Shown here piece by piece: positions 13,970 through 64,000 of a stretch of DNA of 64,000 bases. The stretch is taken from assembly GCF_963676685.1 (NCBI RefSeq), contig NC_092347.1, positions 6,262,001-6,326,000 of the forward strand, in the 5' to 3' direction. Position numbers and translations under genes: made by a program. The notes below the pieces were generated by a model. That model worked only from the letters and a program-made list of their open reading frames with translations. It did not search any database and had not been told where the DNA came from. Position 1 is the first letter of the stretch; every line of letters begins with the position of its first letter. The stretch comes from Mytilus edulis. Its lineage: Eukaryota.

Positions 13970-14059
13970 CAGGGGCCGTCTCCTCGCCCACCGCACACAG
14001 ATAATTCACCAAATTCTGGCAGATAGGGGAATGGTGCAAGAGGACAACCTCAAAAGAAA

Positions 14060-28400: not shown

Positions 28401-30000
28401 CATATAGCATGTATAACAATAATACTATGAGCATGATGAATCAGGGAGAAGTTGGAAATTTCAAAGAACCATGCAGTTACACAGCAAAACAAAACATCTA
28501 CAAGCCAACATCTGGTATCAGACACATAATTGTCAAGATCTGAATCGCCCTTTGCTTGACTCTATTGATTATAGTAATGAACTGAAAGCATGTACAATGT
28601 ACCTGTCTAAATGTATTTAAATAGAGGGTAAATCTATAATCTCCTTTTCAAAGAATTCCAAGATATTGCTGAAAGAATTTATGAGAAATGAAAAAAAATA
28701 ATTACTTTAAAAATTTACTCTTACTAAACTGAGTTGATGCAGACATGATAAAGTGATACTGGATGATAGGCCAAGCTTAGACTTACTCATAAATTTTCCT
28801 TGACAGAATAAATAAAACCAAAGCAAAGTGTATGGTACCATCCCAGTAGTTGATCATAGTTCCAAAAGGAGTTTTCAGATAAGGTTCTCCCTGCAGAAGG
28901 TAGAAATGCATGTATTTCCCAATGTAACCATCATTCTCTAAGGCAACAGTTGTATCCACTAAAGAAGCAAAAAGGAAAATACTCCAAACTGAAATGTATA
29001 AATAAACAAACATGAGGTGCATTGTTCTTCATGTACATGTAGTAATGATATACAACTTTTAAGCATAGCCAAAAATCCATGGAGCTTACAACATGTACAA
29101 TTTCAAAATTCAAATAGTTATAAGATGTCATAATAAAAAATTCTGCGCCCTGAAAAAGTTATCAACATTTCAAATTTAAGTGACAAAACTGATTTGAAAT
29201 AAAGAGCACTAGAAAAAATAGTCATGTCCGTTAAGTCTGTCGGTCTGGTAACTCCATCCATCCCATAACTCTGCCCCTTTACTCTCTTGTGCCTTTCTTC
29301 CAAAATTATTTCGTCTGCTATATTATTTTAACTTTAGACATGTTAGAGAAGAAACCCGTTTGTTTACATCAGATCAAAGGGAGACAATGCAAGTAGATAC
29401 CCATGAAAAAGAAAAGTGCAAAACACTACATTTTCCAACTTTAAATTAGGTCATTATATGGTTTTCAAAAGTCATTTTCGGCTACCATTAGCGTCAAATT
29501 GGTTAAAATTTTACTGTGATGTACTTAAAAATATCCTTATCGTTATTCAACAGAGGTCTTAAATAAATATCGTTAGAGTCATTTAGGTGTTAAAATCATT
29601 CATTTTTTTTTATCATCTAAACGAAAGTGTACATTTTATTGTCATGCACCAAAAATAATTAGTTAACGTCATTTGACAAGAATTTTTTTACCATTATTTG
29701 TCATGAAGGTACCCCCAAAAATTATTTACTACCCTCAAGATGGCATAACAACATGAAACCATTAAGTGAAAAAATCTCATTTAGAGAGCAGGAATATTTA
29801 CCGTTGTAAAAAGGGTCATGTTTTGGTGGACCGTCACTGAAATACAACCGAGGTACCAGGAAAACGACAAGCAGAGACACGACGCCTACTGCAAATATTG
29901 CTGCTGCATTGTCTACTCCACCAATCACTTTCATCAACAGTAGAATGGGAAATGCTAAACATGCTGAAAGGACTGACACCTGAAATCTTGTTAATACCAT
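19478..30000 (-). CDS. TM6SF1: Transmembrane 6 superfamily (TM6SF1/2-like, two EXPERA domains), about 384 aa
   Basis: Exons 30000-29802, [28988-28787 or 27444-27243], 24718-24636, 23855-23764, 23096-22980, 22710-22618, 21756-21631 and 19720-19478 total 1155 nt in frame with GT/AG ends. Motifs LENDG, GEPYLKT, YWDG, LYWCGSI, LLNVPY, FPKMQMLVYLFY, FHAGAAAQAQF, HSRT. Symbol is nominal (likely co-orthologue of TM6SF1 and TM6SF2). Confidence 0.9.
21412..21560. repeat. Long imperfect palindrome (~70-bp arms), terminal hairpin of a non-autonomous element, in the last TM6SF intron
   Basis: attgaatgc...tgtaaaagcgttgaccg...gtatgaagcgcttccgcgcttcatac...cggtcaacgcttttaca...gcattcaat. Confidence 0.7.
26447..27104. 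mobile_element. MITE with ~25-bp TIRs and 5-bp TSD (ATTAT)
   Basis: cagtcagagctcagacataaacaagtc ... gacttatttatgtctgagctctgactg, with ATTAT on both sides (26442-26446, 27105-27109). Confidence 0.8.
27243..27444 (-). CDS. TM6SF alternative exon 2B (202 nt, mutually exclusive)
   Basis: ttgtag acceptor, gtaagt donor, phase 1 to 2. WSILLFSSMVDVVIALENDG...ICYWDGSVHF. Confidence 0.85.
28787..28988 (-). CDS. TM6SF alternative exon 2A (202 nt, mutually exclusive)
   Basis: tttcag acceptor, gtaagt donor, phase 1 to 2. WSIFLFASLVDTTVALENDG...INYWDGTIHF. Confidence 0.85.
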
Positions 30001-33400: not shown

Positions 33401-36400
33401 TTTTCTTTTTTCTCGGAATGATGAAGTAAGTATACGAGTAAGGAGACATGGTATGATTGCAATTAAGTGAGACAACTATCCACTAGAAGAGTGATTGTTT
33501 GTGGAAAATAAAGGAAACGTACTGTACGTACACTTTGGCCTTCAAAATGAGCAAATCATTATATTCAATATTATTGCAGTTATTACTAGAATATAAACTT
33601 AGAATATAAGTTCAGTTTTGTTTACTGTTGCTAAAGTTAATAAACAGTTTTAAACTTCTTTTATTTCTAATTTTAGATGTTTGTGTTTAATTGTTTCTAT
33701 TGGTAAAAGTTTTGTGTATTCTCGTTCTAAAATAACATTGTTTTAATTCAAAATTTTACATTCTTTCAAAATTTAAACATCTATCACCTTCAAAAATGAG
33801 CAAAATTCATATCAAGTCAAATAGCTATACAAGGTCCTGAAATGACAAATATAAATCATTTCAAACATTTGTCAAACATGTCAAGTGAGAAAACTTAAAT
33901 GGCTTGATTTATGTGCATATACAAAACAATGTACAAACAAACGACAACCACTGATTGCAATACAGGCTCCTGGATTGAGACAGGCACATACAGAAATTGG
34001 GGTGTGGTTGAACATGTTTGTTCAGGTGCCAAACTCTCCCCCTTATATGGGACATAGGAACAAACTGTAGAATTAGTTGAAAAGGTTTAACCCATGAGAT
34101 CCATACAAAGGATGTAAAAACCTTAAAAAAACTGAAAAACTATAAAAGTTATAAAAATCATGTACTAGTAATTTGCTCTGATAAGCAAAGGACATACATA
34201 CTTATATTACATGTAAGTTCCTTGATCATGTTGTTTGACTTTTAGCCAAGAAATCTAACCATAAAGATATAGATATCCTTGTAAATCACATGGGAGTTAA
34301 CTCTTTTTAAAACAAAAAAAATCTCATGTTGTTTGACTTTTAGCCAAGAAATCTAACCATAAAGATATAGATATCCTTGTAAATCACATGGGAGTTAACT
34401 CTTTTTAAAACAAAAAAAATCTCATGTTGTTCGAATCTTAGCCAAGAAACCCTAACCATAAAGATATAGATATCCTTGTAAATCACATTGGAGTTAACTC
34501 TATTTAAAACAAAAAAAAATCTCATGTTGTTTGACTCTTAGCCAAGAAACCTTAACCATAAAGATATAGATATCCTTGTAAATCACATGGGAGTTAACTC
34601 TATTTAAAACAAAAAAAATCTCATGTTGTTTGACTTTAGCCAAGAAACCCTAACCATAAAGATATAGATATCCTTGTAATTCACATGGGAGTTAACTCTA
34701 TTTAAAACAAAAAAAATCTCATGTTGTTTGACTTTTAGCCAAGAAACCCTAACCATAAAGATATAGATATCCTTGTAAATCACATGGGAGTTAACTCTAT
34801 TTAAAACAAAAAAAATTTCATGTTGTTCGAATCTCAGCCAAGAAACCCTAACCATAAAGATATAGATATCCTTGTAAATCACATGGGAGTTAACTCTATT
34901 TAAAACAAAAAAAATCTCATGTTGTTTGACTTTTAGCCAAGAAACCCTAACCATAAAGATATAGATATCCTTGTAAATCACATGGGAGTTAACTCTATTT
35001 AAAACAAAAAAAATTTCATGTTGTTCGATTCTTAGCCAAGAAACCCTAACCATAAAGATATAGATATCCTTGTAAATCACATGGGAGTTAACTCTATTTA
35101 AAACAAAAAAAATCTCATGTTGTTTGACTTTTAGCCAAGAAACCCTAACCATAAAGATATAGATATCCTTGTAAATCACATGGGAGTTAACTCTATTTAA
35201 AACAAAAAAAATCTCATGTTGTTCGAATCTTAGCCAAGAAACCCTAACCATAAAGATATAGATATCCTTGTAATTCACATGGGAGTTAACTCTATTTAAA
35301 ACAAAAAAAATCTCATGTTGTTTGACTTTTAGCCAAGAAACCCTTACCATAAAGATATAGATATCCTTGTAAATCACATGGGAGTTAACTCTATTTAAAA
35401 CAAAAAAAATCTCATGTTGTTCGAATCTTAGCCAAGAAACCCTAACCATAAAGATATAGATATCCTTGTAAATCACATGGGAGTTAACTCTATTTAAAAC
35501 AAAAAAAATCTCATGTTGTTTGACTTTTAGCCAAGAAACCCTAACCATAAAGATATAGATATCCTTGTAAATCACATGGGAGTTAACTCTATTTAAAACA
35601 AAATCTGCTGATACCCATGCAAAATTGTAATTCATCATTTATTTTACATGATTAGAATACCTCAGACTCCATGGAAGAGAAGCAGTATATAATAAAAACT
35701 GTTTTATTTGAACCAGTAGGGAATTGAAATCATTACCACCTGCAATCTACCATGAGATTGAGCACACACACTATTCAATTATTAATCTCTATAGATTCAT
35801 TTATTTTCATGGGTACCAATTTTCCCCACTATTGTGGAAAACAATCTGTGAACAATTTATATAACAGTCAGTATAACAGTGAGTTATATGCTATCCAATG
35901 CTACCTTACTGTACTATACACTTAACACCAACTTTAATATTGATGTTTTGTGAACAATTTATGGGTTTATATATTCAATGCTATTTACTGTACCATATAC
36001 TTAACATCAACTTATTGATTTATTTTCAGTGGTGTGGTGGGAACTATTTATGGTTTAATGATATCCAATGTCACCTTATTGTACAATACACTTAACATCA
36101 ACTAATTGATATATTTACAGTGGTGTGGTAGGAACAATTTATGGTTTAATGATATCCAATGCTATATTACTGTACCATACACTTAACATCAACTGATTGA
36201 TTTATTTTCAGTGGTGTGGTGGGAACTATTTATGGTTTAATGATATCCAATGCTACATTATTGTACATCAACCTTTTAGCCATGATCATGAGTGCTGTAG
36301 GTGTGGTCTCGTACATTGCCATGACAAAATCAAAGGTAATTTGAAGTTAAATAAACTTCATATATTTTATACATGTACAATGGTATTATACTAGCTTGTT

Positions 36401-41286: not shown

Positions 41287-41620
41287 TTAAAGAAGATAAA
41301 GGGTTTTTGTCAATGAGCCTGCAACCCAAGAACACTACAAAGCAAAGAAGACACCAACAATCTGCCAGTTAATTTTCTAATACCATCTTAAAAATTTAAA
41401 TATTTTATGAATCCTGCTTTGAACTAGTGAAACAAATACTGTATTTTAGTTTAAAAATCGTGGTTATCATCATATTAGCAATCAAACCAAATCTACAATT
41501 TTCTATGAAGTAGGGCACCTGCTGTTTTATTGTTGTACCAACAGATTTGTACTTTAGACAATTTGCAATTATTTTGAGTCCAAAAATGCAATAAAAGGAC
41601 CTTTAGAAATATAATCCAGA

Positions 41621-44600: not shown

Positions 44601-45728
44601 GTTTCAGAGGAGATTTTTGTAAAAGTTAACGACGGACGACGACGACGACGGACGCCGGACGCCAAGTGATGAGAAAAGCTCACTTGGCCCTTCGGGCCAG
44701 GTGAGCTAAAAATGGTTTAAAATTGACTATAAAGGGCAATAACTCCTTAATGGGTTAACTGACAATTCTGGTCATGTTGACTTATTTGTAGATCTTACTT
44801 TGCTGAACATTATTGCTGTTTACAGTTTATCTCTATCTATAATAATATTCAAGAAAATAACCAAAAACAGCAAAATTTCCTTAAAAAAATTACCAATTTA
44901 GGGGCAGATAGATCTTGACCTGATTAACAATTTTACCCCCATATCAGATTTGCTCTAAATGCTTTGGTTTTTGAGTTATAAGCCAAAAACTGCATTTGAC
45001 CCCTATGTTCTATTTTTAGCCATGGCGGCCATCTTGGTTGGTTTGGAGGGTCACTGGACACAATTTTTAAACTAAATACCCCAATGATGATTGTGGCCAA
45101 GTTTGGTTAAATTTGGCCCAGTAGTTTCAGAGAAGATTTTCGTAAAAGAATACTAAAATTTACGAAAAATGGTTAAAAATTGACTATAAGGGCAATAACT
45201 CTTAAAGGGGTTAACTGACCATTTCGGTCATGTTGACTTATTTGTAAATCTTACGCTGCTGAACATTATTGCTGTTTACAGTTTATCTCTATCTATAATA
45301 ATATTCAAGAAAGTAACCAAAAACAGTAAAATTTCCTTAAAATTACCAATTAAGGGGCAGCAACCCAACAACGTGTTGTCCAATGCATCTGAAAATTTCA
45401 GGGCAAATAGATCTTGACCTAATAAACAATTTTAACCATGCCAGATTTGCTCTAAATGCTTTGGTTTTTGAGTTATAAGCCAAAAACTGCATTTGACCCC
45501 TATGTTCTATTTTTAGCCATGGCAGCCATCTTGGTTGGTTTGGCAGGTCACCGGACACAATTTATAAACTAGATACCCCAATGATGATTGTGGCCAAGTT
45601 TGGTTAAATTTGGCCCAGTAGTTTCAGAGAAGAAGATTTTTGTAAAAGTTAACGACGACGGACGACGACGACGGACGCCAAGTGTTGAGAAAAGCTCACT
45701 TGGCCCTTTGGGCCAGGTGAGCTAAAAA
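41621..45728 (-). mobile_element. Two nested HINE/Helentron-type elements of one family with ~500-bp internal tandem repeats (inner copy 42921-44710)
   Basis: aactagaggctct..aagagcc at 41621 and 42921. (gacg)n microsatellite and agctcacttggcccttYgggccaggtgagct hairpin at ~44630-44706 and ~45652-45724. Unit marker tgactataaagg at 41859, 43157, 43659, 44160, 44724 and 45181. Confidence 0.85.
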
Positions 45729-47059
45729 AAGGAAATGACAACATACTATATATTGGCAAAGATCAACTACACTAAAGCTAACATGACTATGTTAATTTGA
45801 CAATTCTGTTTAAGCGCTAAAAAAGAATTGATGTAGTCACTTCAAATCAATTATTTCTATCAAAGTTGTAAACAAAATTCTGTAGGTAACCTTCGACTCA
45901 ATTTAACCACACATTTCATTTAACATATGTCCATTGTCACCAATAGCTATAAAATGAAATTGTAATTGATTTTTTATCAAAGTCCATAAAGCGTGACAAG
46001 TTCACTGTGAAATCACAGTATTTATATCTGAATAAGGAAAAATCTGAAGTATAAACCCGAAAATTGACGAAATACAAGAACAAGACAACTAAATTTCTTT
46101 CCTAAAAGTCTTTCACCAATAATGAATATTAATCCCCATAATTTTTATTTTTTTTGCAAAATGCAAAAATGGCAACAACCAGCGAAAACCCAAACAAAGA
46201 GTTTAACTTGATACTGGAATTGCAGAAAAATCATAAAAGATAATTATTTAGCCTGCTTTTTCTTAACCAAATTACAGAAAGTTTAGAAATTATTGCATTC
46301 CTTTATTATTGCAGATGAACCTGTAAGCCTAAACATAGCAGCACAAAACAAACATCAAATTATTTCCATGGGTTCAGTTGGAACATATGTGTGGGCAAAA
46401 GTAGCCTTACACAACTTACAAAATCAGCCATATTGAATCTTTGAAACTTTATTCTCATTAAGTTGATAAAATGACATGTAGCTTCAGACAAATCAATCAA
46501 CATTTATCACATAAGAGGTTTAGAAAGAGAACTTAATATACTAAATCAATAGAATAGACCTATCTTTACAATACTGTAAAGACAAATCAAATTGTACCTT
46601 CATAAACATATAATTATTACTTTAACAAAAGGCATAACTTAAAAAAACACATTCAATTTATTAACATTACATGTATATATTTCATTTGATAAAATACAAC
46701 TTTTTAAAATTCCCACAGAAAATAAAAAGAATTGATTTTTACAAATAAATTATCAAGATAAATTCATTTTATACTGTTCTAAATTGTTTGAAATATTCTG
46801 TTGTTCAATGTGTTGTAAAAAAAAAACCTGAATTGTTGACTGATGATTTCAAAATGATATCAGATACAAATACAATGAATCATTCCTCCATTCATGACAT
46901 TCCTTCATAGTTCAAGGTCACTGGTACATACAAATGTTTGTTTGATTATTGACATCCCTGTCTTTGCAGTACATGCTGGTTTGTACAAACAAAATAACAG
47001 ATACGACAAAATAAGTAATGACGGACAATATGAGATGTTGTTTAGAAAGTCCCCATATG

Positions 47060-50000
47060 TTATCTTGCTGAGTCTTGTTCTGTAGAGGTATACCGCTGAC
47101 GTTTTCTTTGATTCTGTCCCTGAAAAAAATAGAAAAACAGTTCTATTAAATGTGGCTTATGATATTTTACATGTGCCATACTAAAATAATTGTCTAATCC
47201 TAGATCAATGAGGGGCAGCAGAAAAATAGTAGTTGTTAATTCTGCATTGTCAATCAACATTATTCTTTAACACTGACAGCATGAATAGCAGGCTTGCAAG
47301 ACAAAGAGTTCATGGGCACATTAATTTTTTTCTAAATTTAAGGTGGTATCTAACACTACAGGGAGATAACTCTGTAAAATCAGCTAAATGTTTTAAGCTT
47401 CTCAATGATCTGTATGTCAAACTGCTATATATATCCAATGAAATTTTTCAGTGAAAGTGATTTGTTCAAGTTTGTTGAAATTTTTATATTTTTTACAAAG
47501 GGTCAAGGTAAATATTTTGTCAAAATTTTATGAAAATTAAACAAGCCAAATTAGTTTTAGTCAAGGTGTTGGGTACCACCTTAATATTATTAATAAATTT
47601 TTATAAACTTGACAGTTTGAAAAATAACTTAAAAAATGACCAAAACATGTGAAAAATTCCTGATCTTTGATGATATCTACAGAACTTTCAACATACCTGG
47701 TAAAATCCTGTGTGATAGCCACTCATATACCAAGACATCAGCATACTACATAAGGCTTCATTATCACAGTTCATTAACTCAACATACCTGGTAAAATCCT
47801 GTGTGATAGCCACTCATATACCAAGACATCAGCATACTACATAAGGCTTCATTATCACTGTTCATTAACTCAACATACCTGGTAAAATCCTGTGTGATAG
47901 CCATTCATATACCAAGACATCAGCATACTACATAAGGCTTCATTATCACTATTCATTAACTCAACATACCTGGTAAAATCCTATGTGATAGCCACTCATA
48001 TACCAAGACATCAGCATACTACATAAGGCTTCATTATCACTGTTCATTAACTCAACATACCTGGTAAAATCCTGTGTGATAGCCACTCATATACCAAGAC
48101 ATCAGCATACTACATAAGGCTTCATTATCACCGTTCATTAACTCATCATTGATTGGTGGTGGTGGTGGAGGCACAAATGGGAGGCCCTGAAAAATAAGTA
48201 ATAAAACAATTATATACAGATGTAGCTTCAATCTTTTACAATAACTATGATACAGTTTTAGGAACCATGCTTACCCGTGTGACATTATAAGTTCTAATAG
48301 TGTGTGGTTGCACCATTGTTCCTGTACTCCTTGATAAGGGGAGGGTTGTGTGCTCACAACTATGCTAAAACCCACCAAGCCAGGAGCCTGTTATTCAGTA
48401 ATTGTCATTGGTTTTTCCTTGATTGTTTTGCCTCTTATAGCTGACTAAATATGGTATGGGTTTTGCACATTATTGGAGGCATAACAGTAACTTCGTGTTG
48501 CCTCAAAGTCTGTACCAAGTCAGGAAATTGAGAGTTGTTTTTTTCACTTGTAAGTTGATAACATTTGATTTCCTCAGTTTTTGTATACGGACTTCAAGTT
48601 TTTATGTATTACAATTTATATGTAAACGCAAATATCAAATGCCTTTCATACTTGTGAATAATTTTCATTCAGTCCTTTTAATTGTAACAACTGTTTTATC
48701 AAATCATTGCTTTGTTTTATTATGAAAGAGATTTTGTACACTTTCAAAGGTGTTATTCAATTAATAGTATAAAAGGGAGATAATTACAAAATCAACGATG
48801 TAAAATATGACAAACGACAAAGGTTATCTCCCACTATATAGCATGTATTTCATTCATTTAGAAAAAAACTCTTAGATTTTCTTTTACAATAACTGATTAA
48901 ATAATATTTTTTTCAGGGGCCCAGTTGAAATCTTCGGGCCCAACCAATTTTTAAATTAACAAGATAAAACTTAAATATACTTTTCATATACCAATTAAGC
49001 CTTTTTATGTAATGCTATATGTAATGTTTGAGTCTGGAAAAGATAATGTATGATTACTTCATAATATTTGAATTATTGCCACCAGAAATATATCATAAGA
49101 TTTGAGTCAATGACTGTACTGATTTTTGAAGATTTCCCGCCAAAATTGTCTCCCTTCAATTAGAACTTCCTGTTGACAATAGGGCTGTTTCCATAAAGAA
49201 TTAGATGATATTTCAAATCCAAGCCATCCTCTAATAAGTGTTGATCAAAAATATTATTCAATTACTTTTCATTGAAGATTGGTTCCCATACTAGATATTA
49301 TGATATTTATTTATGAGATTTTACCTCTCGTTTTTTTATTGAAGAACAAGTTTTGTTTGCAAGTTTTTGTCATAAATGCACTTGTAATAACTCCCCAAAC
49401 AACTGGGATTTATTTTTGAAGCAATTCAGATTCAAAAGCGTAATGAAAACACTTTAAAATGATAAATTAATCGTAGAAACTTTCAAAAAGAACGTTTAGA
49501 GAAGGTGATTACATGTGTCAAATCCTGATTTCGCATCAAAAACTTAGTTGTACGACTGGATTTTGGTTTTTAAATTAATGACCTAACTGGTTACCGGAAA
49601 TCTGCCTTTCTATTTTCCCTCTTTCATTAGACTATCAGATTTCCATTTGGGAACAGTTTTTATACGCCCGTTTTTTAGCGGGGGAAAGGATAGACATGGG
49701 ATTAAATGCAAAATATTATTTGTCGCCAGCTGGGCGATCAGGATGATAAATATATTCGCCCAGCTGAAAATCTGGTCGCATTGGGCAACTGGCCGACCGT
49801 TAAGTTCAGTCCCTGCACAGTATTTTCTGGAACAGCCCAAAGCAGCTATATCAACTATACTATTGTGATAAGGCTGTTAGTTTTCACTTTTGAATTGTTT
49901 TAAATTGTCATATCGGGGCCTTTTATAGCTGACTATGCGGTATGAGATTTGATCATTGTTGAAGGCTGTACAGTGACATATAGTTGTTAATGTCTGTATC

Positions 50001-53000
50001 ATTTTGGTCTCTTGTGGACAGTTGTCTCATTGGCAATCATACCATACTTCTTTTTTTTTTATAGCTACTGAATCATTATCTGCTTACCCCTGATGGTGGT
50101 CCCATAAATCCTTGGGGGAAAGATGGAAATGAAGGAAACTGTGGCTGTGAAAAAACAAACATTCATTTATTGTAATTTCTATAAAAAAATATTGACATGA
50201 ATAATATATAGGGTTTTTGCATAAATGTTTGGTAAATATATGTCTTAAAGGCATTGTCAACTTAAGTGACCTGTGGTTTTTAATATTTTACTTCCTCAAG
50301 TGAAGAAGGTCATGGGTTTAAATAGATAGATCACCTGATCAAACTAAAATTTAAATAAAAATAATAATTTCTGCTTCAGACCGCATTTTGAGGTATTCCA
50401 GAGTAAACTGATTTAATCTGAAATCACAATAAAGTGTCTGTGTCCTGACATTTGAGTTTTTAGTTAAAAATAAACATTGTGTGTATCAGTCTTGTACAAA
50501 TCTTAGTGTGCTAAATATTGACTAAATCAATGCTACTTGAGGTTAATGTTGATGTCATTGCCATTATCATCATCTTCTTGAATTGCACATGACATGATTT
50601 TCATTAACATTTGTGTTTTTCTATTGATTAAAACATGCACATTATTTACCATTGAAACACCAGGAAATGGAGGCATAAATGGCATTCCTGGCATAAATGG
50701 AGGATTAGTACTACTACTGGCTGAATGTTTCTTCTTTCTATCAGGTGCTGGACTCTGCCTTGCACTCCAATCCATACTATCTGACTGTACAAATATAAAT
50801 CATGCATTTATAAAATAAATTTAAGTAGACAGTTTAAACATATATTTAAATACTTATCAATAGTGAGTTATCAACAGTATATGTATATTTAAATTTGAGA
50901 TAACAGTTTATGATAATTTTTAATTTAAGTAGACAAAGTTTTAACCTTTATCTGAATGGTAGCTTTTTAAACTTGTTATATCATATTACAATATAAGGCT
51001 TTTTTATACGAATTTAATTTAAAAGTAGATATTTGTATTTACTTCTGACTTCTGTCTTTGTTTCTGTTTTCTGGTTGGCTGGAGTAGTTCTGTAAATTCT
51101 TTCTCTTCCTCATTACCATATCCTCTGTATCGTATGATACATGTCTCTGCTTCCTCGTCTATGTCTATAATCTCAGCATCATATGTCAGGTCATCTTCTG
51201 TAAACACAGCTCTACACTGATCACCTACTTTCCAAGGACACTAAAAATAAGGTAACATATTCAGGTATCAAACAATTACTGTATTTATGTAAGTTTAGAA
51301 ATTATTGCGTGCTTTAGTATTGCGATAACTAAAGAATAGACAAAAATGCAAGATTAAGTAATGCTATTTCAAGAAAATCTGTATACAGTTGTGAGGGCCC
51401 TCATGGGGTTTTTGATTATGTGATTACTTGGCCGTTTTTTTAATGATTATTTGATTATTAAGCCAAATATTTCATGATTATTTGATTACCTAGGACTGTA
51501 TTTTTAGTTTATGATTATTTGATTACTAAAGATAAGCAAATATTTAATGATTATGTGATTATATTGGCCAAAAAATGGTGATTATGTGATTACTAGGACC
51601 CCCCATGAGGGGCCTCAGTTGTATATCAGTATGTATCAAATATCAGAATGCGAGTTCATTTTATCCCTATACTCACTAATAATTGCATTATTCACAATAA
51701 CAAAAAACTCACAATAATTTCTACACTTACAGTAATCTATATATTCTGTAACTCTAATTTTGGCCAGTAATTTATTTTCACAACTTCTGCAAATTGGAAA
51801 ATAATGTGAATATTTATCAGCACAATTACCTAAAACTTGGACCTTCCCTCATCTGAAAACTTTTAAGTTAGTTTGAAAATCACAAAATTATATTGCAGCA
51901 AACTAAGATAGACATGATAGAAAGGGCTAAATGTGATATAAAGTACCCGTAAAAATAAGTACTTTTTTTTACTGTATATATAAGACACCTTTTTTTTCTG
52001 ATTTTTTTTCTCTGAAAATGTATAACTTGAAATCAAATATAATGTACAGTAAAGATATCTTATATAATAAAGGGATGCACATTTTTCTGGATTGGCATAC
52101 CATCAAAAAATAAATACTCTGGGCTATTTCAGAAAAAAAAACCAAAATGGGGTGTAGGTTTGAAAGGCACTTTATTGTTTACTTGGTGACCTCTTACAAG
52201 CCATACAAAGATAATTAAAGGGCCTTCCAACCCCCACCCATATATCTGATAGTTTAGTTTATTTCAAACCAAAAGCAATACAGCTTATAGGTATATCATA
52301 AATGTGTACATGTATAACATAACAGAACATTTTAAATACAATAGGAGGCAAGACTACATAGTATAAATCATTCAGAAGATTGTCATGAAAATTTTATATC
52401 TGTGGCGTATTTCAGATATTTTCCTAAATTAGATAATTCCGAAACATTCTTTGTTGACAATAATTGAACTAATTTAAAAACAGATGCATTTGTATAATAA
52501 TACCTTTTTATATACATTTTTCTAATATTGTCATATTTTGGACATTTTAAAATAAAATGAAACTCATCCTCGATGTCACCCTGGTTACATAAGATACATA
52601 ATCTTTAATTTTTTGCTTTTTTAATGAATCTACCATATTCAATATTCAATTTGTGTGAACACAGTCTATACTTTGTTAAAAATCTAATACATTGTGGACT
52701 TAAATTTTTTGTCAAATAAAACTGCAATTGAACATTATCCACAAGGTGTTTATAGATAGTACATTTTGATGATGAATCGAAAAACATATTTCTTTCTTGA
52801 AGAAAATGGTCAATAAGCCTTTGTTTGAATAAAATAATAAATGCTTCTTCGCATACAACATTCTGTGCATACCACACATGTCCAAAACCTAGGCTAAGTA
52901 ACATACATTTAACATTATTAACCCATGATGACTTATTTCCTGATTCACACTCATCATACATATCATTATATATAGCATTAAGAATACAATTTCTCGTCCG

Positions 53001-56000
53001 TAATAGACGAATCCAATATTTTAATATTTTTACTTTCCGAGATATCAATAAAGGAAATCTTCCCAACTCAGAATAAACCATTGCAGTAGCAGTGGATTTT
53101 TTAACAGTCAAAATATTTTTACAAAATTCTATATGAAGTTTTTCTATATCAGATGCATTATGAAAACCCCATATTTCACTTCCATATAATAAAACAGGTG
53201 ATACATAGACATCAAATAAATACAATTTTGTTTGTACATTTAAACACATATGTTTTATTTTACCATACAACATTGATAAACATTTTCTGCCTTTGGCAGC
53301 AATATTTAACTGAGTTTGATTAAACTTTGCATTGTAATATAACATAACACCCAGATACAAATAATGATCAGCAACTTCAATAATTTCGCCATTATAAAAC
53401 CATTTTTCATCGCTTCGTAATTTACCACCGTTTCTGAAAACAACCACCTTAGTTTTGCTTGTGTTTACAATAAGTTTCCACTTTTTACAATAATTATGTA
53501 GTGAATTCAACATATTTTGCAACCCATCAATAGTTTCGGAAAATATAACAGTGTCATCTGCATACATCAATAAAAACAACGAAAGTTCTTTTATGTCTAC
53601 TGGTAGACATAAGCTATTAATAAACTCATTTTCAAAATCATTTAAAAACATTGAAAATAGTATAGGTGATAATGGTTCCCCTTGCAATACTCCTTTTTCT
53701 ACAGAAAATATGTCAGAAAATTCACCTTTAAATTTTACACAGCTCATAGAATTATCATATAAAGACTTAATAATTGAAAAAAGTTTACCACTAATACCAC
53801 ATTTTGCAAGCTTATAATATAAAAAAGCACTTTTATAATCTATAAAACAACGATAAAGTTTTTTCTTCAATCCCAAATATTTAGTAATAATTGATTGTAA
53901 GGCAAAAATAGCATCAGTTGTGCCATGACCGGGTCGAAACCCAAACTGAGCATCAGTTAAAATGTCATTTTCGTTAGCCCACAATGTAAGCCTTTCATTA
54001 ATAATAGTAGTAAAAAGTTTGCAGAAACAACTGCTCAGTGTTATACCTCTATAATTATCAGTAACATTTACATTATTTTTTTTATGCACAGGAATAAGTA
54101 TTCCTTTACACCACTGTTTCGGCATATATCCAGTTTCAAAAATTACATTAAACAATTGCACAATAAAAGGTACGAGAATGTCTTTAAAATGTATAAAATA
54201 CTCATTTAACAAATTGTCAGCACCTGGCGATTTGTTACATTTTAACTTCAACAAAATTTTACATACTTCTTCTTGAGTAATAGACGCATCAAAGTTCGTT
54301 ATACACACATTTTTGGTTATCAGCTTCAACATCATCGGTTATATTAGAAGTGGTTTCAGCAGTTAGGTTTTTGAAATGATTATAAAAATCTGACGACTTT
54401 AAATTACAATTAGTGTTCTTCTTTCCTTTTTTAAATACATCAAAAAACTGTTTCGGATTATGTTTTCGCCAATAGTCAATTTGGTTTCCTTCATATCTCA
54501 AGTAGTTTCGTTTAACGCGATTTTCATACGATTTGTAGTTCTTTTTTGACTCAATTAGAATTTGGCGATTCAAATTATTTCTGTTCCTATTGAAACGCCT
54601 AATATTACAATGATATATATAATACAGTTCTTTGCATCTATCGTCGAACCATGGTTTATTTGGCAGTGAGTTTTTATTGCTTTTAATGTTCGTAGCATTC
54701 CTTTTAATACAATAACGTTTTTCACAAAATGGTTTGAAGACAGTATTCAATGTTTCAGTATGTTTTATAACAGTATTCTCAATACTTTGTTCTGTACACA
54801 CCATTTGCTCAACGTTACTGCTCATTGTGTCCATATGACTAATCAAACTAGTTTTCATTTCCGTAATTTTGTCCGGATCCCATCTGTATGTGCTGTGAAA
54901 AATATTATCATCACTTAAATTGAATGTTTTTATACCAGTATCGGCTATTTCAAGCGTTAAAATAGCGATAGAATGTTATCTTTTGAAAGTCTAAATGATG
55001 GTCCAATATACAGATAGATAAAAAAAAATCTTTTTTTGTATTTAGAAATTTCAAGGGCCCAAAAAAAGACCTTGTCAAGTCTTCTGCTTTATTCATCAAC
55101 TACAACCATAAAGTATGCCAATTTTCAAAATACCTTTTTCTTGTTTTTATGTTTCTTTTTCCTCTTCCTTTTCCTTTTCTTATTTATATCTTGTTTGTTT
55201 GATGTCTGTGATTCGTTATCATTAATAACAGAACCATTTACTTTGGCCTGTAAAGAAAACATTTTAATAAATGGAATACATTAAATAACAGATCAACAAA
55301 AAATTATATCCCTATTTCTATAATGAAATTTAAGTAATCCTTCAACCACTAAAGTTCAACAGTACAAATGGCCTCTAAAATCACTTATAAAAACAAACGT
55401 TCAATCAAGGTTTACTTTCATCATTATTATAGTGTTTAACTATGAAATTAGAAATATAGAGTGTGTCACATTGTGTTATTATGCTATGGTAAATTTTTGT
55501 AATCTTGTCTTTCTTGTTCAGTCAGGGTATTTACTTAAACAAGTGATTTTCTAAATCACTGATTCAAGTAACATTATTTCCATAAAGGTTGGAAGTTAGA
55601 GTTGTCTTTCTTTAATAATCACCTATTTAAGTAGTACAAATTAATCACTAGACGAAGTGATTTAATATTAGTGTAGCTTTAAATATAGAATACTAATGAT
55701 CCAGGGACTAATTATGTTTCTAAACTTATCAGAACCAACATCTGTGTTGTCTGGGATGACCAGGTCATTTCAGACAACATCTGTGTTGTCTGGGATGACC
55801 AGGTCATTTCAGGTGATGACCTTGTACTGAATCTAGGATAATGACATAAAAATCACTTGTATAAATATCAGACCTCAATTTCCTTCCCAAAAATTACTTT
55901 TTTAAGTATCATTCTTTTAATAACCCCCACTAATTTCAACACCCCCAAACAGTGAAATTTTTATCGCGAACAGTAGAATTTTATTACATAATCTGAAAGA

Positions 56001-58955
56001 TGAAACCTTGAACTTCACAGGAAAAATACTCCCACTGCTGTGAAAAATCTTTTAAGAAAGTATCAGTTCATTATGTAAAGCCATTATTATAGCATTTTTT
56101 CAACTAAAATAGAATTTTCAGGTAAATGATAACATCAAAGGCATAAACCTTGCTACTTAAAAGAAGCAAAAGGTTCATATTTTTAAATTTTACTAACTAA
56201 AAGATGTTATTTAAATCTATGTGTTTAAAATTTTGAAAAAACTATAAAATTCCAATTTGTGACAAAACCTCAAATTTGCTACTTAAATAAGTGATTTAAA
56301 AATCACATATTTCAGTAAGTTCCCTGACTGTTGTTTGATTGTGTGCTTTTTGTCGTTTTTTGGTCTCTTGTGGAGAGTTATCTCATTGGCAATCATACCA
56401 CATCTTCTTTTTAGATATTTGTCTGTATGCCTTTTTGTTTTTCTTTGTTTGCTTTAACAGTGATTAAGATTATAACAGAATGTTGACAGCTACACCCTTA
56501 TTACTTTTTTACCTATTATGTCTGATAGTTTTGTTCACATATTGTTGTCAATATAATGAAATTTTATGTGACTGTCATACAAGTGAGAGGTTTAGCTACA
56601 TGTACATAGAAAAATGCCTGTACCAAGTCAGGAATATGACAGTTGTCATCCATTCCTTTGATGTGTTTTTGATTTTTGCCAATCGATTAGACTTTCTGAT
56701 TTTATTTTCCTCTGAGTTCAGTATGTTTGTTAATTTACTTTAAATTTTCACATTAAAACTTTATCGTGTTTTGCAGCACGGGGAATGAAATGTGAAAGTA
56801 ACTGAAAATTAAAGCCAGCAAAGTGATGGCTATTTATAACTGATTCATTTTCAGTGTCTGTCATTACATGTGTATACTGTGGTTTCATTATCTTTCATAC
56901 AAGATTGAAAAATATGGTGGTTTAGAGTCTTGTTTTAACCTTTGATAAGTAATAGTATGAAAATTATCAAAACAAAACTTGTTTGAAACATAAATAGCTT
57001 AATTGTTACAAAAAAATGTAGGCCATATATATTTATAATCTAAAATGAATTCTCTATAAGAAAAAAATTGTAAAAAGGCTTACTTTCACTAGGTTCACAG
57101 CATTGTCATAAGCTTTTATTAATGCTGTATCATCCCACAGATCACTGTCACTCTCTGCAGCCTGAAACACAAAAGTAGGAATCATATTATTAATGTAATA
57201 TCAAGTATAAATATATAGTACAAATACATTAACCTTATTACCAAAATCATCTAAAATCTATTCTTACACTAACGAAGGAAAACCTAAAAAAAAAATTAAT
57301 AACATATTGGGAGTTCAGTGGTGTTCTGTTCCAAAGTTGACACATTAATAGCCTTTCAAGACATTATAATTATTTAGACTAAGAATGGATGTGAAATTGC
57401 TTTGAAAATTACGGGAAAACATGATCATGGTTTTCTGTAACTGAAGAAGAAATTCCTTAATTGACTAATTAAATGCCAAAATAACTTTACTAGATAAAAA
57501 AGATGCCCATTTCATTAAATGCTTATACACCTTATGGCTTTTGTCCGCCATTACCAGACATAACAAAAGTTCCCGTAAATTTTGACGTCATATGATAATA
57601 GACAATATGTAATAATACCATGAATACTTTAATAAACATTCTAATATGACGTGCTTCTTTCGCTTTGTAAACAACACTGTGTGAAAATTCTCGATATATC
57701 TATACTTAGCGCAGAATCAGAATGAATGTTATTGTTAAAATATACCTCCCACGTAAATCTACATGCATTTGAATCTATTTGCAAACGCTTTGCCGATTTT
57801 ATTGTATTAGAAATTGTAATAAAACACAAGACAAAAGAACTTTTATTCTTATTCGGATGCATAATAAAAAGAATTAATATACTGCAACTAGTTGTGTTTA
57901 TTTCAGTTACATTTTGTGCAATGTCAATTTCATCATGAAACACTCTCACCACAATCAGGGGTTCCTTAAGGGATGAAAATAAGCTCATATTTATGTTACG
58001 GTTTTTTAGTCTGTCAAAAATATAAACTTTTTGGTAACCATTGAAGTTCGTATAATATTGTATTAAAATGGAATTCTGAGGTAGGTTTTGTTTTATTTTC
58101 TATTCTATTAAATTATTCGCATATTAATTGATTTCAGCGAGTCAACTAAGCTCCTTCGTTTCGAAATTTACACATGGCCTGGGCTGTGATATTCGCTAAT
58201 TTTATCCCTCGCTAACGCTCAGGATAAAATTCTAATATCGCGGACCAGGCCATGTGTAAATTTCCAACAAATCTATGGCTTTCATGAATTATTTCTTAAA
58301 TATCTGATGCCACAATGAAAAAGTGATTGTTGTATGGCGTCAAAAGTTCAAGCAGGACATATTTCCCAATAGCGACAGATGTATTGTCACTGATAAGGGG
58401 CAAAATTATTTGACTTTTTCCAATACACCTTATCACTAATCCCGGATGACCTGGCCGCTTAAACTTTTGAGGCATACATTACAACAATCACCTTTCCATT
58501 TTGGCCTCAGATATTCAGTTTTATGACGTCAAAATTTTACTGGAACCTGTGTGATATCCAGTAATGGCGGACAAATAGCGATAAGGTGCATAGGTGCTGA
58601 AGTGACCAATTGCCAATTTGACTTGTTCCCTGGACCTCAGCAAGTAGCACCTGCCACAAAAAGCGCTTTGATGTAAACTATTAATTTCATTGGAGATAAC
58701 CATCTGGGAACTATCCACAAAGTGGCATTGCATATAATTTATTTGTTGACTTTTTGAGGCAAGGCCCAGGGGAACGTACTTACAACGTCTCTCCCGTAAT
58801 GTTTTAAGGGTCATCTAGTTAGTTTTACAGAAAAATGTACACCATTTTGAAGAAACTTATTGGTTTTCCTAATTTATAAGATTCATTCTTTTTTAATTTA
58901 ATCAAAATGTCACCTGGCCTCGTTGAAAAAGTACAGTTCCAGCTACTGAGGCCAT
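47060..58955 (-). CDS. SMN1: Survival motor neuron protein, 269 aa, 8 coding exons
   Basis: Exons 58955-58914 ([14 protein letters not shown]), 57161-57084 ([17 protein letters not shown], Gemin2-binding), 55247-55134 (Lys-rich), 51240-51043 (Tudor [14 protein letters not shown]...YRGYGNEEE), 50784-50650, 50144-50088 (Pro-rich), 48186-48061 (YG box [17 protein letters not shown]) and 47119-47060. 810 nt, all phase 0, GT/AG ends. Confidence 0.95.
47342..47580. mobile_element. Small MITE with TTAA TSD (Kolobok-like) in the last SMN intron
   Basis: ttaa|ggtggtatctaacac ... gtgttgggtaccacc|ttaa. Confidence 0.8.
47688..48145 (-). repeat. 91-bp tandem repeat x5 of the SMN YG-box exon 3' end plus 5' splice site
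   Basis: CAG|gtatgttga with exon-end G at 48061, 47970, 47879, 47788 and 47697. Copies are nearly identical. Confidence 0.95.
49860..50060. repeat. SINE-like interspersed repeat (related copies ~19980-20125 reverse, ~56340-56412)
   Basis: Shared block tggtctcttg.gga.agtt.tctcattggcaatcatacca at several positions in this window. Confidence 0.6.
51393..51616. mobile_element. MITE with 6-bp TSD (AGTTGT) and internal tgatta repeats
   Basis: agttgt|gagggccctcatgggg ... ccccatgaggggcctc|agttgt. Confidence 0.8.
52253..54966 (-). mobile_element. 5'-truncated CR1/L2-group LINE (RT fragment) in an SMN intron, sense to SMN
   Basis: Frameshifted ORFs 54289-54858 and 52605-54335 with [29 protein letters not shown] and YADD. 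3' tail aaataaactaaac. Candidate TSD GATAG at 52248-52252 and 54967-54971. Confidence 0.9.
55736..55812. repeat. Direct tandem duplication (~39 bp x2)
   Basis: caacatctgtgttgtctgggatgaccaggtcatttcag occurs twice in a row. Confidence 0.9.
57528..58588. mobile_element. Non-autonomous DNA transposon with CACC termini and nested hairpin element, SMN intron 1
   Basis: caccttatggcttttgtccgccattac ... gtaatggcggacaaatagcgataaggtg. Internal palindrome aaatttacacatggcctgg...ccaggccatgtgtaaattt at ~58164-58263. Confidence 0.7.
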
Positions 58956-59200
58956 TTTTGGCAGAGAACCTATCGTCAGATGAAACGACAAATTTAATTG
59001 GTTAAACTTAATATTTCAACCAATGAGAAACTGTGTTACATAAACGTAGCACGTGTTTTGCTCTTTTGCTGGAAAGTAGAAAAAGTGTACATTTCCGGTT
59101 AAAGATCTAAAACACCTTACACCAAAAAAATTGTTATTGTAAGTAATAACTGCTAAAATCTACTGTGTAACAACGTTCAGAATTGTAACCCAGGTTAAAA
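58956..59200. promoter_or_regulatory. Putative bidirectional promoter of SMN (-) and SUGP1-like gene (+)
   Basis: Opposed CCAAT boxes (attgg ~58998, ccaat ~59020), E-box cacgtg at 59050, ETS-like ttccgg ~59093, candidate + strand UTR-exon donor gtaagt at 59139. Confidence 0.55.
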
Positions 59201-59329: not shown

Positions 59330-61680
59330 CTATCTATCTATCTTCCCGTGAAGGAGTGGACTCATTTTTGAGTGTATATACTCCAGGGTGAGTGAACAGC
59401 AAAAAGTATTTACAGTTAAAATGAGATCTGTATGTACAGTTTAAATCAGTGCTGTAGTTTGCTTCTCTCTACGAGAGAAGCTCTACTGTGATAGTCGAGT
59501 TGACATATTTATAGACCCTCATTGATAGGATTTCAACCTCCTGTGTTTAGATGTGGAGTAGTGTCAACACGCTGACGTCTTGGATAGCATGTCGAAAATG
59601 TTTTACAGACGGGGAAGCTTGGATGTCTGGAGGTATGTTGCATACCTGTCAACCTGTGACGATGAAAATGCAGGTCATGACCTGCATTGAAGAATCAAAT
59701 CTCAGGTCATAATGCGTACAAACTTTTTCAAGCTGAATTTCAGGATTTATGGTACATTTTCTTATAATGTATATCCCAAAACATCAATGCATGTTCACTT
59801 GGTTAAGTCATTTTAAATCTTATTTATTATTATTTCATTACACTTTTAAAGATTTTTATTAACTTGTGGATCACAGTCTTATGTCCTTTACTTTTTGTCA
59901 TCATCTAAATTTTATTTTTAAATACTACTAGCCTTTATCATACCATGTAGAGGTATTACATGTATGAACATTCATCTCTCAAATGACAGGGAAATTAGAC
60001 TATGATAAAATATAGTAACACAGTTAAAGGAAGTATAAATGTAAAAAATAATTTTCAACTTTTTTTAAAAAATTGTATAAAGGTATAAAAATAATGAAAA
60101 GTTATTTTTCAATATGTATTTGAATTTTATATTATTATGATTTAATCTTTTTCACCCATAAAATGTAAATATAAGGAATAGTTTTGAATGGTGACAAATA
60201 AGGGGAAGTAACTCTTAGTTGAAATATCTTTGTAAAACAACAGGGCAATTTATTTACGACCTATTAAAGCTAAGGTAATTGGTGTTAATCAACAGTGTGT
60301 TTGACACCAAAGCTGTCAAGTGAAGCCATGCACTTAATGGGTCACTTAATTTGACAGTTTACATAGCTAGATGAACTGCATGTTTATGGAAGAATTACGA
60401 ATTTGCCGGTATTTCAAAGGAATATTACTTATGAAAATCAATCTCAAGGCTAAGAAATACGGGTGAAATCGGGTCATTTTCGGAATTTCAGGGTTATTTC
60501 AATGACCCGGCGGGTGATCCCTCAGAATTGTGAAAATCTCGGGTCACACCCGCAGAATCCGGGTCAGTTGACAGGTATGATGTTGTTCCAGGATATGATG
60601 GTGGAAGGAATGAATGAGTATTTGAAGCAATCCAGTTTGGCCCTGATCTGTCTGATGTTATTAGACTTGGAACCACAGGTTCTGGTGTTATGGTGAATGA
60701 GCAGGTGGTGAACAGGTACTTCTACGACATGATTTATAATTTTGTAGAACATGATAACTCTGTTCCTGACTCTTCTGTGTTCCAGTGGTTCTCAACCTAG
60801 TTGCTGAGTAATTTTGGTTACGCAACCAGGTTCACTTGAGAAGTAGTCCCCCATTGCAAATCTGGCAGCTTGGCGTTGTACATTTTCGAGTTGTTAGATT
60901 TGCTGTTGACGGTAGGGATCCCATACAGCACTGGCATATTTGAGGACAGGCCTCACTAAAGTTGTGTAGGCTTGGCTTTTAACTTCCTGAGGAAAACTCC
61001 TGGGGTTCCTACATAGGAATCCAACAGATCTGGTGGCTTTTGCTGTGGTCTGGTTTACATGCTCGTTAATGTACATGATGTATAACCGAAGGTATTTCCC
61101 ACCTAGGACACTTTCACGGGTGTGGCCATGCAGATGGTAATCGCATATGATGGGTTGGCGTTTCTTACTAATGTGGATAGTGGTACATTTCTGTGGATGG
61201 GATGACATTTGCCAGTCATTTTCCCATTTTCTAGCTTATCTAGGTCGTCTTGCAGCTTGGTGGAATTGCTGGTGGATCTAATAGGACGATACAACAGGAA
61301 GTCATCAGCAAAAAGTTTCACACTAGAATTAACAGATTCTGGGAGGTCGTTTATGAAGACGAGAAAGAGCAGGGGTCCCATTACTGTATCCTGTGATTAG
61401 CCAGAAACTACCTTTGCTTCATCTGACATTGTTCCCTCCACTAGGACATGTTGTTTCCTACTGTTCAGGAAGCTCTCCACCCATTTGAGAGTAGAGTCAC
61501 TAACTCCGTAGAATTTGAGCTTATGGAGAAGTCACTTGTGTGGCACCTTATCAAAGGCTTTTGCAAACAGGCAAAGTCTAATAATATTGCGTCAATTTGT
61601 TGGCCATTTGATAGTTCATTTGCCAGTTCATGAATTGTGGCAATCAGCTGTGTCTTGCAAGAGCGTTGAGCTAATGAACA
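59330..61680 (-). mobile_element. 5'-truncated, decayed RTEX-like LINE
   Basis: Fragments RSCKTQL..DAILLDFA, GPLLFLVFINDLP..FADD, RPVLKYASAVWDPY, FKYSFIPSTIISWNN. 3' (GATA)n tail at ~59330-59342. Clade assignment from recall. Confidence 0.8.
59641..60579. mobile_element. Non-autonomous DNA transposon, 13-bp TIRs, 6-bp TSD, inserted in the RTEX-like LINE
   Basis: atgttg|catacctgtcaac ... gttgacaggtatg|atgttg. Removing it restores the LINE frame WNNIPPDIQASPSVKHFR. Confidence 0.9.
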
Positions 61681-62150
61681 GTAGTACTTTATTTTCATAT
61701 GCGGCTTAACCTGTGTTTACTTATTTGGTATTTCAAGCAAAGATGTGGTGGGATTTGCTGAGAACTGAGGCTAATATATCACCCACTGGTGCACATAGTG
61801 CCAATGCAGGACATCTTGCCCTAAAGATCAGTCTGTTTGAGTCCAACACACCTTATTACTGTTTGTCTGCCATTGATGGACATCACAAAGGTCCTTGTAA
61901 AATTTTACGCCACAATGTATAAGTGATTGTTTCAAAAGTTCAAGCAGCGCCTATTCTTGGATAAACCAGCACATATATCAAAAGAGTGATAAGGGTGTTA
62001 TTACAGCTTATCTTTATCACTTCAAACCCTTTTGCTCAGAGATACATGTACATCATGCTTAATCTCAATGTATTTTAATTTAATGAAAGATATAAGGATC
62101 TGGATAATTTCTTTTATTTTTTTTTCAGCACTTGACTACCTTCAATCACC

Positions 62151-62347
62151 ATGGCAAATAAACCAAAACTAACCCCAAACACACTGGGTTACACTAACAC
62201 AACTTATAGAGAAAAAATGACACAGATGAGTGAACAGGAAAAGATAATTGAAGAAAAGAAGAGAAAAATTCTTGAAAAAATGAAGGCAGATGAAATAGCT
62301 GCAGTGACAAAAAATTCAGCAGCAACACCTACTTCTACACCACCAGT
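62151..62347 (+). CDS. SUGP1: First coding exon of a probable SURP and G-patch domain protein 1 (gene continues beyond the window)
   Basis: Strong acceptor ttttttcag at 62128, good Kozak (caccATGG), donor gtaagt at 62348. KMTQMSEQEKIIEEKKRKILEKMK resembles the recalled SUGP1 N-terminal helix (ILHQEELIAQKKREIEAKM). Exon is well supported; identity is tentative. Confidence 0.55.
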
Positions 62348-64000
62348 GTAAGTTATATGTTAGCCCTACTTCTACACCACCAGTGTAAGTTATATGTTAG
62401 CCCTACATCTACACCTCCCGTGTAAGTTATATGTTAGCCCTACTTCTACACCACCAGTGTAAGTTATATGTTAGCCCTACTTCTACACCTTCCGTGTAAG
62501 TTATATGTTAGCCCTACTTCTACACCTCCTGTGTAAGTTATATGTTAGCCCTACTTCTACACCACCAGTGTAAGTTATATGTTAGCCCTACTTCTACACC
62601 GCCAGTGTAAGTTATATGTTAGCCCTACTTCTACACCACCAGTGTAAGTTATATGTTAGCCCTACTTCTACACCACCAGTGTAAGTTATATGTTAGTCCT
62701 ACTTCTACACTGCCAGTGTAAGTTATATGTTAGCCCTACTTCTACACCCCATATGTTAGCCCTACTTCTACACCACCAGTGTAAGTTAAATGTTAGCCCT
62801 ACTTCTACACCACCAGTGTAAGTTATATGTTAGCCCTACTTATACACCGCCAGTGTAAGTTATATGTTAGCCCTACTTCTACACCGCCAGTGTAAGTTAT
62901 ATGTTAGTCCTACTTCTACACCGCCAGTGTAAGTTATATGTTAGCCCTACTTCTACACCGCCAGTGTAAGTTATATGTTAGCCCTACTTCTACACCGCCA
63001 GTGTAAGTTAAATGTTAGCCCTACTTCTACACCTCCTGTGTAAGTTATATGTTAGCCCTACTTCTACACCTCCCGTGTAAGTTATATGTTAGCCCTACTT
63101 CTACACCACCAGTGTAAGTTATATGTTAGCCCTACTTCTACACCGCCAGTGTAAGTTATATTATATGTTAGCCCTACTTCTACACCTCCCGTGTAAGTTA
63201 TATTATATGTTAGCCCTACTTCTACACCTCCCGTGTAAGTTATATGTTAATACATCCTTTAACACCTCCTGTGTAAGTTAGATGAAATAGCTGCAGTGAC
63301 AAAAAATTCAGCAGCAACACCTACTTCTACACCGCCAGTGTAAGTTATATGTTAGCCCTACTTCTACACCACCAGTGTAAGTTATATGTTAGCCCTACTT
63401 CTACACCGCCAGTGTAAGTTATATGTTAGCCCTACTTCTACACCGCCAGTGTAAGTTATATGTTAGTCCTACTTCTACACCGCCAGTGTAAGTTATATGT
63501 TAGCCCTACTTCTACACCACCAGTGTAAGTTATATGTTAGCCCTACTTCTACACCGCCAGTGTAAGTTAAATGTTAGCCCTACTTCTACACCGCCAGTGT
63601 AAGTTATATGTTAGTCCTACTTCTACACCGCCAGTGTAAGTTATATGTTAGCCCTACTTCTACACCACCAGTGTAAGTTATATGTTAGCCCTACTTCTAC
63701 ACCGCCAGTGTAAGTTAAATGTTAGCCCTACTTCTACACCACCAGTGTAAGTTATATGTTAGCCCTACTTCTACACCGCCAGTGTAAGTTATATGTTAGC
63801 CCTACTTCTACACCACCAGTGTAAGTTAAATGTTAGCCCTACTTCTACACCACCAGTGTAAGTTATATGTTAGCCCTACTTCTACACCGCCAGTGTAAGT
63901 TATATGTTAGCCCTACTTCTACACCACCAGTGTAAGTTATATGTTAGCCCTACTTCTACACCGCCAGTGTAAGTTATATGTTAGCCCTACTTCTACACCA
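62330..64000 (+). repeat. 37-bp tandem array (40+ copies, runs off the window) spanning the exon end and 5' splice site
   Basis: Unit cctacttctacaccRccaGT|gtaagttatatgttagc. The first unit is the real exon end. Confidence 0.97.

Follow-up and report, generated by a model that had tools for sequence, protein, structure and literature searches.

The 64,000-nucleotide stretch of Mytilus edulis DNA analyzed here (hereafter, the window) ends inside an array of more than 40 copies of the 5' splice site GTAAGT that adjoins the first coding exon of a putative splicing factor gene, and the question that this locus raises is which of these donors is used and whether the surplus copies have any function. 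A sequence-only reading had proposed that the array serves as a landing platform for the U1 snRNP, acting as a sponge, a sink for nonsense-mediated decay (NMD), or a telescripting or directionality element. The evidence described below favors, with a probability of roughly 0.8, a different answer: the array appears to be an exon-intron-boundary minisatellite of the same kind as the human F7 repeat and the 'mirages' of amphioxus, with the first donor used and the rest of the array nearly neutral.

The host gene

The 66-residue peptide encoded by the exon in front of the array has no match in Pfam, and its exact sequence is absent from the protein collection. When used as a query, it retrieved two protein clusters, the closer of which includes 24 members from several Mytilus species, with names such as SF4 and splicing factor 4; residues 1-130, used as a second query, led to these two clusters again. 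By inspection, the first 66 residues of P0004, a named M. edulis protein of 911 amino acids, are the same as the exon peptide, and in Pfam searches this protein shows the combination by which SUGP1/SF4 is recognized, namely, a Surp module (PF01805, E = 6e-11) and a C-terminal G-patch (PF01585, E = 5e-13). Taken together, the cluster names, the match to P0004 and the two domains identify the gene as the SUGP1/SF4 gene of Mytilus, as the sequence-only reading had tentatively suggested.

Nine of the 15 cluster members listed cover the region of interest, and all nine contain a single copy of the peptide that is repeated in the array; eight of these run past it in frame whereas one (P0014, represented by 4 Logan contigs) stops at 66 residues. 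Such a truncated product is what reading through the first donor yields, with GTG TAA following immediately and the stop falling at codon 67. Because this stop precedes all 43 donors in the window (8 of the 43 were translated), any distal donor carries it into the message, so that the truncation at 66 residues that had been predicted for distal donors holds and a premature stop gained through an alternative site, the mark of alternative splicing coupled to NMD, is indeed encoded ahead of every distal donor.

Table 1. Coordinates of the SUGP1 array, its host gene and the related features in the window
Feature	Position	Strand	Basis
SUGP1 non-coding exon 1; donor at 59139, followed by the 2990-nt intron 1	59086..59138	+	contig joint
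SUGP1/SF4 exon 2, which opens the coding sequence (ATG at 62151); its end falls in phase 2 of codon 66	62129..62347	+	RNA contigs, translation
Authentic donor, the first GTAAGT; read-through stop at 62349-62351	62348..62353	+	long contigs
37-nt minisatellite, open at the window end	62328..64000	+	Tandem Repeats Finder and donor counts
Further donor copies (pseudo-sites), n = 42	62385..63974	+	
Repeated 3' end of exon 2 (~60 nt), within the array and behind a degenerate unit	63280..63339	+	
SMN exon 1, ATG at 58955, divergent from SUGP1	58914..58960	-	joint 57160/58913 in run X2
SMN sister array, 91-nt unit x5.1, end of YG-box exon and donor	47688..48149	-	sequence only
SWEET/MtN3-type gene sister array, 91-nt unit x3.5, acceptor and exon start	35952..36267	+	DNA sequence alone

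Anatomy of the array

Tandem Repeats Finder reports a minisatellite at 62328-63999 with a period of 37, 45.4 copies, 90% matches and a score of 2622. Each unit combines the first 17 nt of SUGP1 intron 2 with 20 nt from the end of exon 2; the earlier description of an exonic part repeated together with a donor therefore stands, except that the exonic part is 20 nt long and not about 18. The hexamer GTAAGT occurs 43 times between 62348 and 63969, compared to 19 times on the plus strand of the other 62 kb, so the original count of more than 40 tandem donors in 37-nt units starting near 62330 is confirmed; both 45.4 copies and 43 donors are lower bounds given that the 3' end of the array lies beyond the window. 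The 17-nt intronic part has 43 matches in the window at no more than 3 mismatches, 42 in the array and one at 35879, against a chance mean of 0.44 (0 of 100 shuffles reach 43).

The array has the features expected of a boundary minisatellite: the first unit spans the real exon-intron boundary, with the array starting at 62328 and the exon ending at 62347 as defined by RNA contigs, and the splice signal is repeated in the downstream units. The 42 donor-to-donor intervals comprise 16 unit types, and the three bases in front of the donor GT are AGT in 35, CGT in 5 and TGT in 3 of the 43 cases. In one interval, of 63 nt, a donor was lost by deletion, two units carry a 5-nt duplication, and one further unit is degenerate. 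The second copy of the exon end separates a varied block, with 14 unit types among 24, from a uniform one, with 5 among 17. Within the first block, in purely descriptive terms, the divergent units are found at positions 2, 4, 5 and 18-24, that is, towards both ends. Together with the degenerate last unit and the uniformity of the second block, this distribution fits the concerted turnover with divergent edge units that is typical of such minisatellites.

A coding repeat is ruled out, as each of the six frames contains stops within the first three units. The array contains no AATAAA or ATTAAA, and its first 300 nt show no unusual RNA fold compared to shuffles (z = -0.51), which lends no support to masking of the distal donors by RNA structure. 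Searches for the exon-end pattern in metagenome contigs and for the unit pattern in viral contigs gave 0 matches each, and none of the 593 pattern matches obtained with the exon peptide was confirmed by alignment to metagenome contigs. Assembled contigs break at the array.

Donor choice in RNA contigs

Four of the 24 runs listed were compared, as assembled contigs, with the segment 56900-62421, which covers 2 of the 43 donors; the word shares of the runs are too coarse for this purpose, with array words accounting for 30% of the distinct words of the query. Three of the runs (X1, X2 and X7, from three studies under two organism labels) are probable RNA as guessed by the tool, and each of them contains a joint between 59138 and 62129 that bridges a GT..AG intron of 2990 nt. 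Because this joint is present in all three probable RNA runs, the coding exon is exon 2: the array does follow the first coding exon, as originally described, but this exon is preceded by a non-coding exon 1 that ends at 59138 and whose start in Table 1 is the furthest contig reach, not a defined start.

The long contigs of X1, X2 and X7 (1333, 3489 and 1693 nt, at depths of 78.2, 27.1 and 38.4, respectively) stop matching at 62347. Thus, with 2 of the 43 donors covered, the first donor is the one used by the dominant contigs in all three probable RNA runs, and the message is derived mainly from the most upstream donor, as is the rule for boundary minisatellites, to the extent that the dominant contigs represent it. 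The contig letters beyond 62347 probably correspond to exon 3, judging by the full-length proteins that continue in frame at this point. No joint at a distal donor was found among the 15 joints listed, where contigs drop rare forms and decay would deplete them further. The second donor likewise has neither a joint nor a loose end in this listing, which is of low sensitivity for the same reason and beyond which there are 18 more joints, 437 loose ends and 1936 pieces. A 662-nt contig of run X16 (61692-62353) ends 2 nt after the read-through stop and neither shows nor excludes the array.

A short contig of X1 (138 nt, depth 2.7) runs unspliced through 62328-62412 and might derive from intron RNA or from DNA; in either case, it indicates that the array is present in another sample. 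This observation bears on the possibility that two alleles were joined in the assembly at the re-copied exon end, inflating the length of the array, a concern that would affect the copy number only. Such a join would leave the configuration that is seen: a degenerate, edge-like unit, then another exon end that differs at one base, then a fresh array. However, in addition to the array being seen elsewhere, the exon copy is partial and its junction shows an overlap of 2 bases, AG, as in a true duplication, and we regard the artefact as unlikely.

The SMN neighbour and two sister arrays

Upstream of SUGP1, in the opposite orientation, lies an SMN gene, with Pfam hits to the Tudor domain and the YG box downstream of its first exon. 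The SMN and SUGP1 contigs approach to within ~130 bases of each other, so that, together with the joint of SMN exon 1 to exon 2 in X2, the proposed head-to-head layout is borne out; the array starts ~3.2 kb from the SUGP1 promoter. The short promoter shared by the two genes, at 58960-59110, contains a CCAAT near 59020 and a CCGGAA-type motif near 59090 that we take to be ETS-like.

Apart from the SUGP1 array, the window contains six arrays with a period of at least 30 and at least 3 copies, and two of the six span splice sites (Table 1). The array at the end of the SMN YG-box exon includes 5 donors, its copies differ at 1-2 bases, and reading through gives Val-Cys-stop. Use of a distal SMN donor would end the protein just past the YG box, with 82 nt left to the last junction, and the short last coding exon, judging by position, comes next. 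The other array is on the acceptor side of an exon in a SWEET/MtN3-type gene, with 86% matches and 3 acceptor-like copies, the last of which precedes the full exon. The MtN3_slv hit in this exon scores 21.7 bits, below the curated cut-off, and that in a later exon 30.2 bits, above it. The same intron also holds a 99-nt x13.9 array (34226-35603) in which no splice site was recognised.

The chance of observing two splice-site arrays among six is 0.04-0.10 for a hand-estimated 45-70 splice sites, which makes a mild excess of arrays at splice sites possible. U1 plays no part on the acceptor side. The acceptor-side array in an unrelated gene is thus better explained by some general process of duplication than by a U1 device, and the occurrence of three arrays in three neighbouring genes suggests that arrays of the 'mirage' type are common in mussel genes.

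Remains of retroelements lie inside introns of the divergent gene pair at two places: one, in an SMN intron (52605-54975, minus strand), has a 577-aa frame with an RVT_1 hit (E = 4e-31), and the other, in SUGP1 intron 1 (60494-61716, minus strand), consists of fragmented reverse-transcriptase remains with a weak hit below the cut-off.

Comparison with known boundary arrays and a scenario of origin

The array looks like a large case of a repeat type that is known from human and lancelet genes. For the 37-bp VNTR in intron 7 of human F7, the use of only the upstream donor is described for repeat numbers from 1 to 12 (PMC1557585, Borensztajn et al. 2006). As far as that account extends, the SUGP1 array resembles the F7 repeat in the position of the first unit over the exon-intron boundary, the identical donor copies behind it, the 37-bp unit and the use of the upstream donor. 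Unlike the F7 repeat, with its 5-9 copies and 4 exonic nt, the SUGP1 array has at least 43 copies, 20 exonic nt and an immediate read-through stop; furthermore, donor choice was determined with minigenes for F7 but comes from assembled contigs only for SUGP1. The same source lists other boundary minisatellites, namely, those of human 6-16 (25 pseudo-sites, two used), CBS (15-20, two used), lamin B2 and PDGF (PMC1557585), which share with SUGP1 the reiterated donors (10-25 in these genes) behind the authentic one; in contrast to 6-16 and CBS, where two further sites are used, no such use was seen in SUGP1, at low sensitivity.

The VNTR in intron 18 of human ABCA7 is described as ~12-427 units of 25 bp, each beginning with a donor, with retention of one unit (PMC5954066). 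As in SUGP1, the units carry the donor, and second-donor use results in an out-of-frame message; in ABCA7, length polymorphism and an effect on splicing have been demonstrated (PMC5954066). That the ABCA7 array matters counts against a neutral view of the mussel array, as does the unevenness of substitutions among the units (see below). The amphioxus 'mirages' are presented as tandem duplications of either boundary type in several genes, with splicing apparently undisturbed (PMC3087553), and the mussel array resembles these as an invertebrate boundary array with divergent edges, which match the edges of mirages that are excluded from homogenisation. The amphioxus globin mirages consist of 3-6 units of ~150-160 bp, whereas the mussel array is built of no fewer than 45 units, each 37 bp long. 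A literature search by title and beginning of abstract found no bivalve case of such arrays, in a coverage that omits most subscription journals, so that one may be published.

In the scenario that we favor, a nearly neutral boundary minisatellite would have arisen by a 37-nt tandem duplication across the boundary of exon 2 (20 nt) and intron 2 (17 nt), followed by growth to at least 45 copies via unequal exchange or slippage and one larger re-copying of the exon end within the array. The spliceosome would pick the most upstream donor, closing a 219-nt exon, as seen in the dominant contigs; this preference could result from exon definition combined with the order of synthesis. With the first donor used, splicing removes the other copies as part of the intron, the product is the protein of 911 residues, and the array would be tolerated because it is nearly silent. 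By analogy with human 6-16, CBS and ABCA7, at most a slight leak into stop-containing message via the second or third donor would be expected, and a small loss to decay is accordingly among the possibilities. The locus provides a large, naturally occurring case of first-donor choice in a mollusc. It could conveniently serve to test whether leakage into decay occurs when dozens of donors are identical, and it is a trap for gene annotation.

Variation between units

Comparison of 39 units, with 3 irregular intervals left out, revealed 10 distinct substitutions, of which 0 are in the donor hexamer, 1 is in the rest of the intronic part, and 9 are in the 21 nt after ttag. The lack of substitutions in the 6 donor bases (0 of 10) is not significant evidence of donor protection (P = 0.17), and one unit has no donor at all. 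The excess in the 21 nt after ttag yields P = 0.03, or 0.16 when two indel events are counted. Six of the nine substitutions in this part, including all the recurrent ones, are synonymous in the SUGP1 frame, and the three non-synonymous ones are singletons; this bias is post hoc and borderline (P = 0.042 by alleles, 0.13 by sites). The uneven substitutions and the synonymous bias are, at a borderline level, not predicted by pure drift. A simpler reading of the synonymous bias is that exon alleles could have been copied into the array; one of the synonymous variants is present in the re-copied exon end.

Functional alternatives

The most plausible functional alternative is unproductive splicing that depends on repeat length or conditions, whereby distal donors would send a measurable share of SUGP1 message to NMD and so tune the dose; with the 5-donor SMN array, this could extend to an snRNP-sensitive feedback on the shared promoter. 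The inclusion of the stop at 62349-62351 by every distal donor, the stop-generating donor array in SMN, the two extra sites used in human 6-16 and CBS (PMC1557585), and the retention of one unit and the VNTR length effects on splicing in ABCA7 (PMC5954066) are all compatible with this possibility, and self-regulation of this kind is described as frequent among splicing factors. The 66-residue P0014 fits a truncated message but equally fits a genomic contig, such as that of X16, which ends 2 nt past the stop. Against regulated decay, there is no distal joint among the 15 listed, the copies are young and near-identical with no apparent conservation of the donors, the neighbouring sugar-transporter gene has a similar array on the acceptor side, and, in the account of F7, donor choice is unaffected by the repeat number (PMC1557585). 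The NMD sink of the sequence-only reading thus does not agree with the dominant contigs, which take the first donor in all three probable RNA runs; rare or degraded forms are invisible in contigs, and a leak is possible. On balance, we consider regulated decay improbable; if a leak were regulated, the array would gain in importance because both genes on the promoter serve the spliceosome.

More speculative still, and very unlikely, is a scheme in which the paired arrays of SMN (5 donors) and SUGP1 (at least 43) form a rheostat of splicing homeostasis: changes in U1 supply or elongation rate would shift splicing to distal donors, both messages would be degraded, the gain would be set by the repeat length, and in-frame 21-nt micro-exons, to which the synonymous bias of the unit variants would point, would be a second output.

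The units end in ttag, which had been proposed to be a weak acceptor that might allow recursive-like events. A recursive splice site consists of an acceptor AG followed directly by a donor GT, with a pyrimidine tract. In the array, AG is followed by CC, which rules out ttag as a recursive site; only 7 of the 15 bases upstream are pyrimidines, and another AG lies in front. By comparison, all 17 hand-picked acceptors in the window, most of them without an RNA check, have 9-14 pyrimidines among 15 and no upstream AG. Accordingly, ttag qualifies as a weak, indeed poor, acceptor, and the recursive-like events can be dismissed.

The same element would be essential if the array were a bank of micro-exons, with the 21 nt between ttag and the next GT spliced as a cassette exon encoding an in-frame Pro/Thr/Ser-rich heptad. 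The length is divisible by 3, the segment is stop-free in all 13 regular-length unit types with ttag, and, as noted, the common substitutions are all synonymous with the three non-synonymous ones being singletons. Nevertheless, no pyrimidine tract precedes the acceptor, an AG lies upstream of it, no joint with a 16-nt skip is present among those listed, a second heptad is found in 0 of the 9 proteins covering the region, and the synonymous bias, being post hoc and borderline, is explicable by copying of exon alleles. Such micro-exons are therefore very unlikely.

The least likely alternative is the U1 landing array itself. Donors were scored by the ViennaRNA duplex energy with the U1 5' end. 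The array donors come out at -6.4 (n = 35), -5.5 (n = 5) and -5.4 (n = 3) kcal/mol, compared to -7.0 for the exon 1 donor, -8.1 and -8.3 for two SMN donors and -14.0 for a perfect site, and 221 of the 6661 other GT sites in the window (3.3%) score at least as well as the first donor, a proportion that applies to the 35 commonest donors. These are ordinary, moderately good sites but mediocre matches to U1. In favor of a U1 platform are the 43 GUAAGU in 1.6 kb, of which the 35 commonest are within the best 3.3% of GT sites, the head-to-head SMN gene, and the description of a 5' splice site that, without being spliced, can protect elongation at an early stage (PMC12211998). The numbers argue against a sponge, with at most tens of weak sites of 6-7 base pairs per nascent transcript facing approximately one million U1 per mammalian cell, the figure given in PMC10870369. 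With respect to telescripting or directionality, the donor that has been linked to directionality is one in the initially transcribed region (PMC12211998), where the exon 1 donor at 59139 is located but the array, ~3.2 kb past the promoter and behind this real donor, is not; moreover, intron 1 is nearly without poly(A) signals (0 AATAAA, 1 ATTAAA), and coding genes extend in both directions, each with an early donor of its own, so that neither role proposed by the sequence-only reading is supported.

Other features of the window

Several additional features were observed in the remainder of the window. On the minus strand, 27239-27499 and 28783-29028 are two similar copies of an apparent single coding exon of a membrane-protein gene, presumably TM6SF-like, with no Pfam hit; the pair could be a duplicated or a mutually exclusive exon. 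Further retroelement remains are located at about 12900-17460, and a transposon-like unit at 41600-45730 occurs in several tandem copies that are long and degenerate and that, with a period above 500, are not reported by Tandem Repeats Finder. Finally, on the plus strand, 91-594 and 8181-8657 are the last exons of two tandem ninjurin-domain genes, the second of which is preceded by several very short exons.
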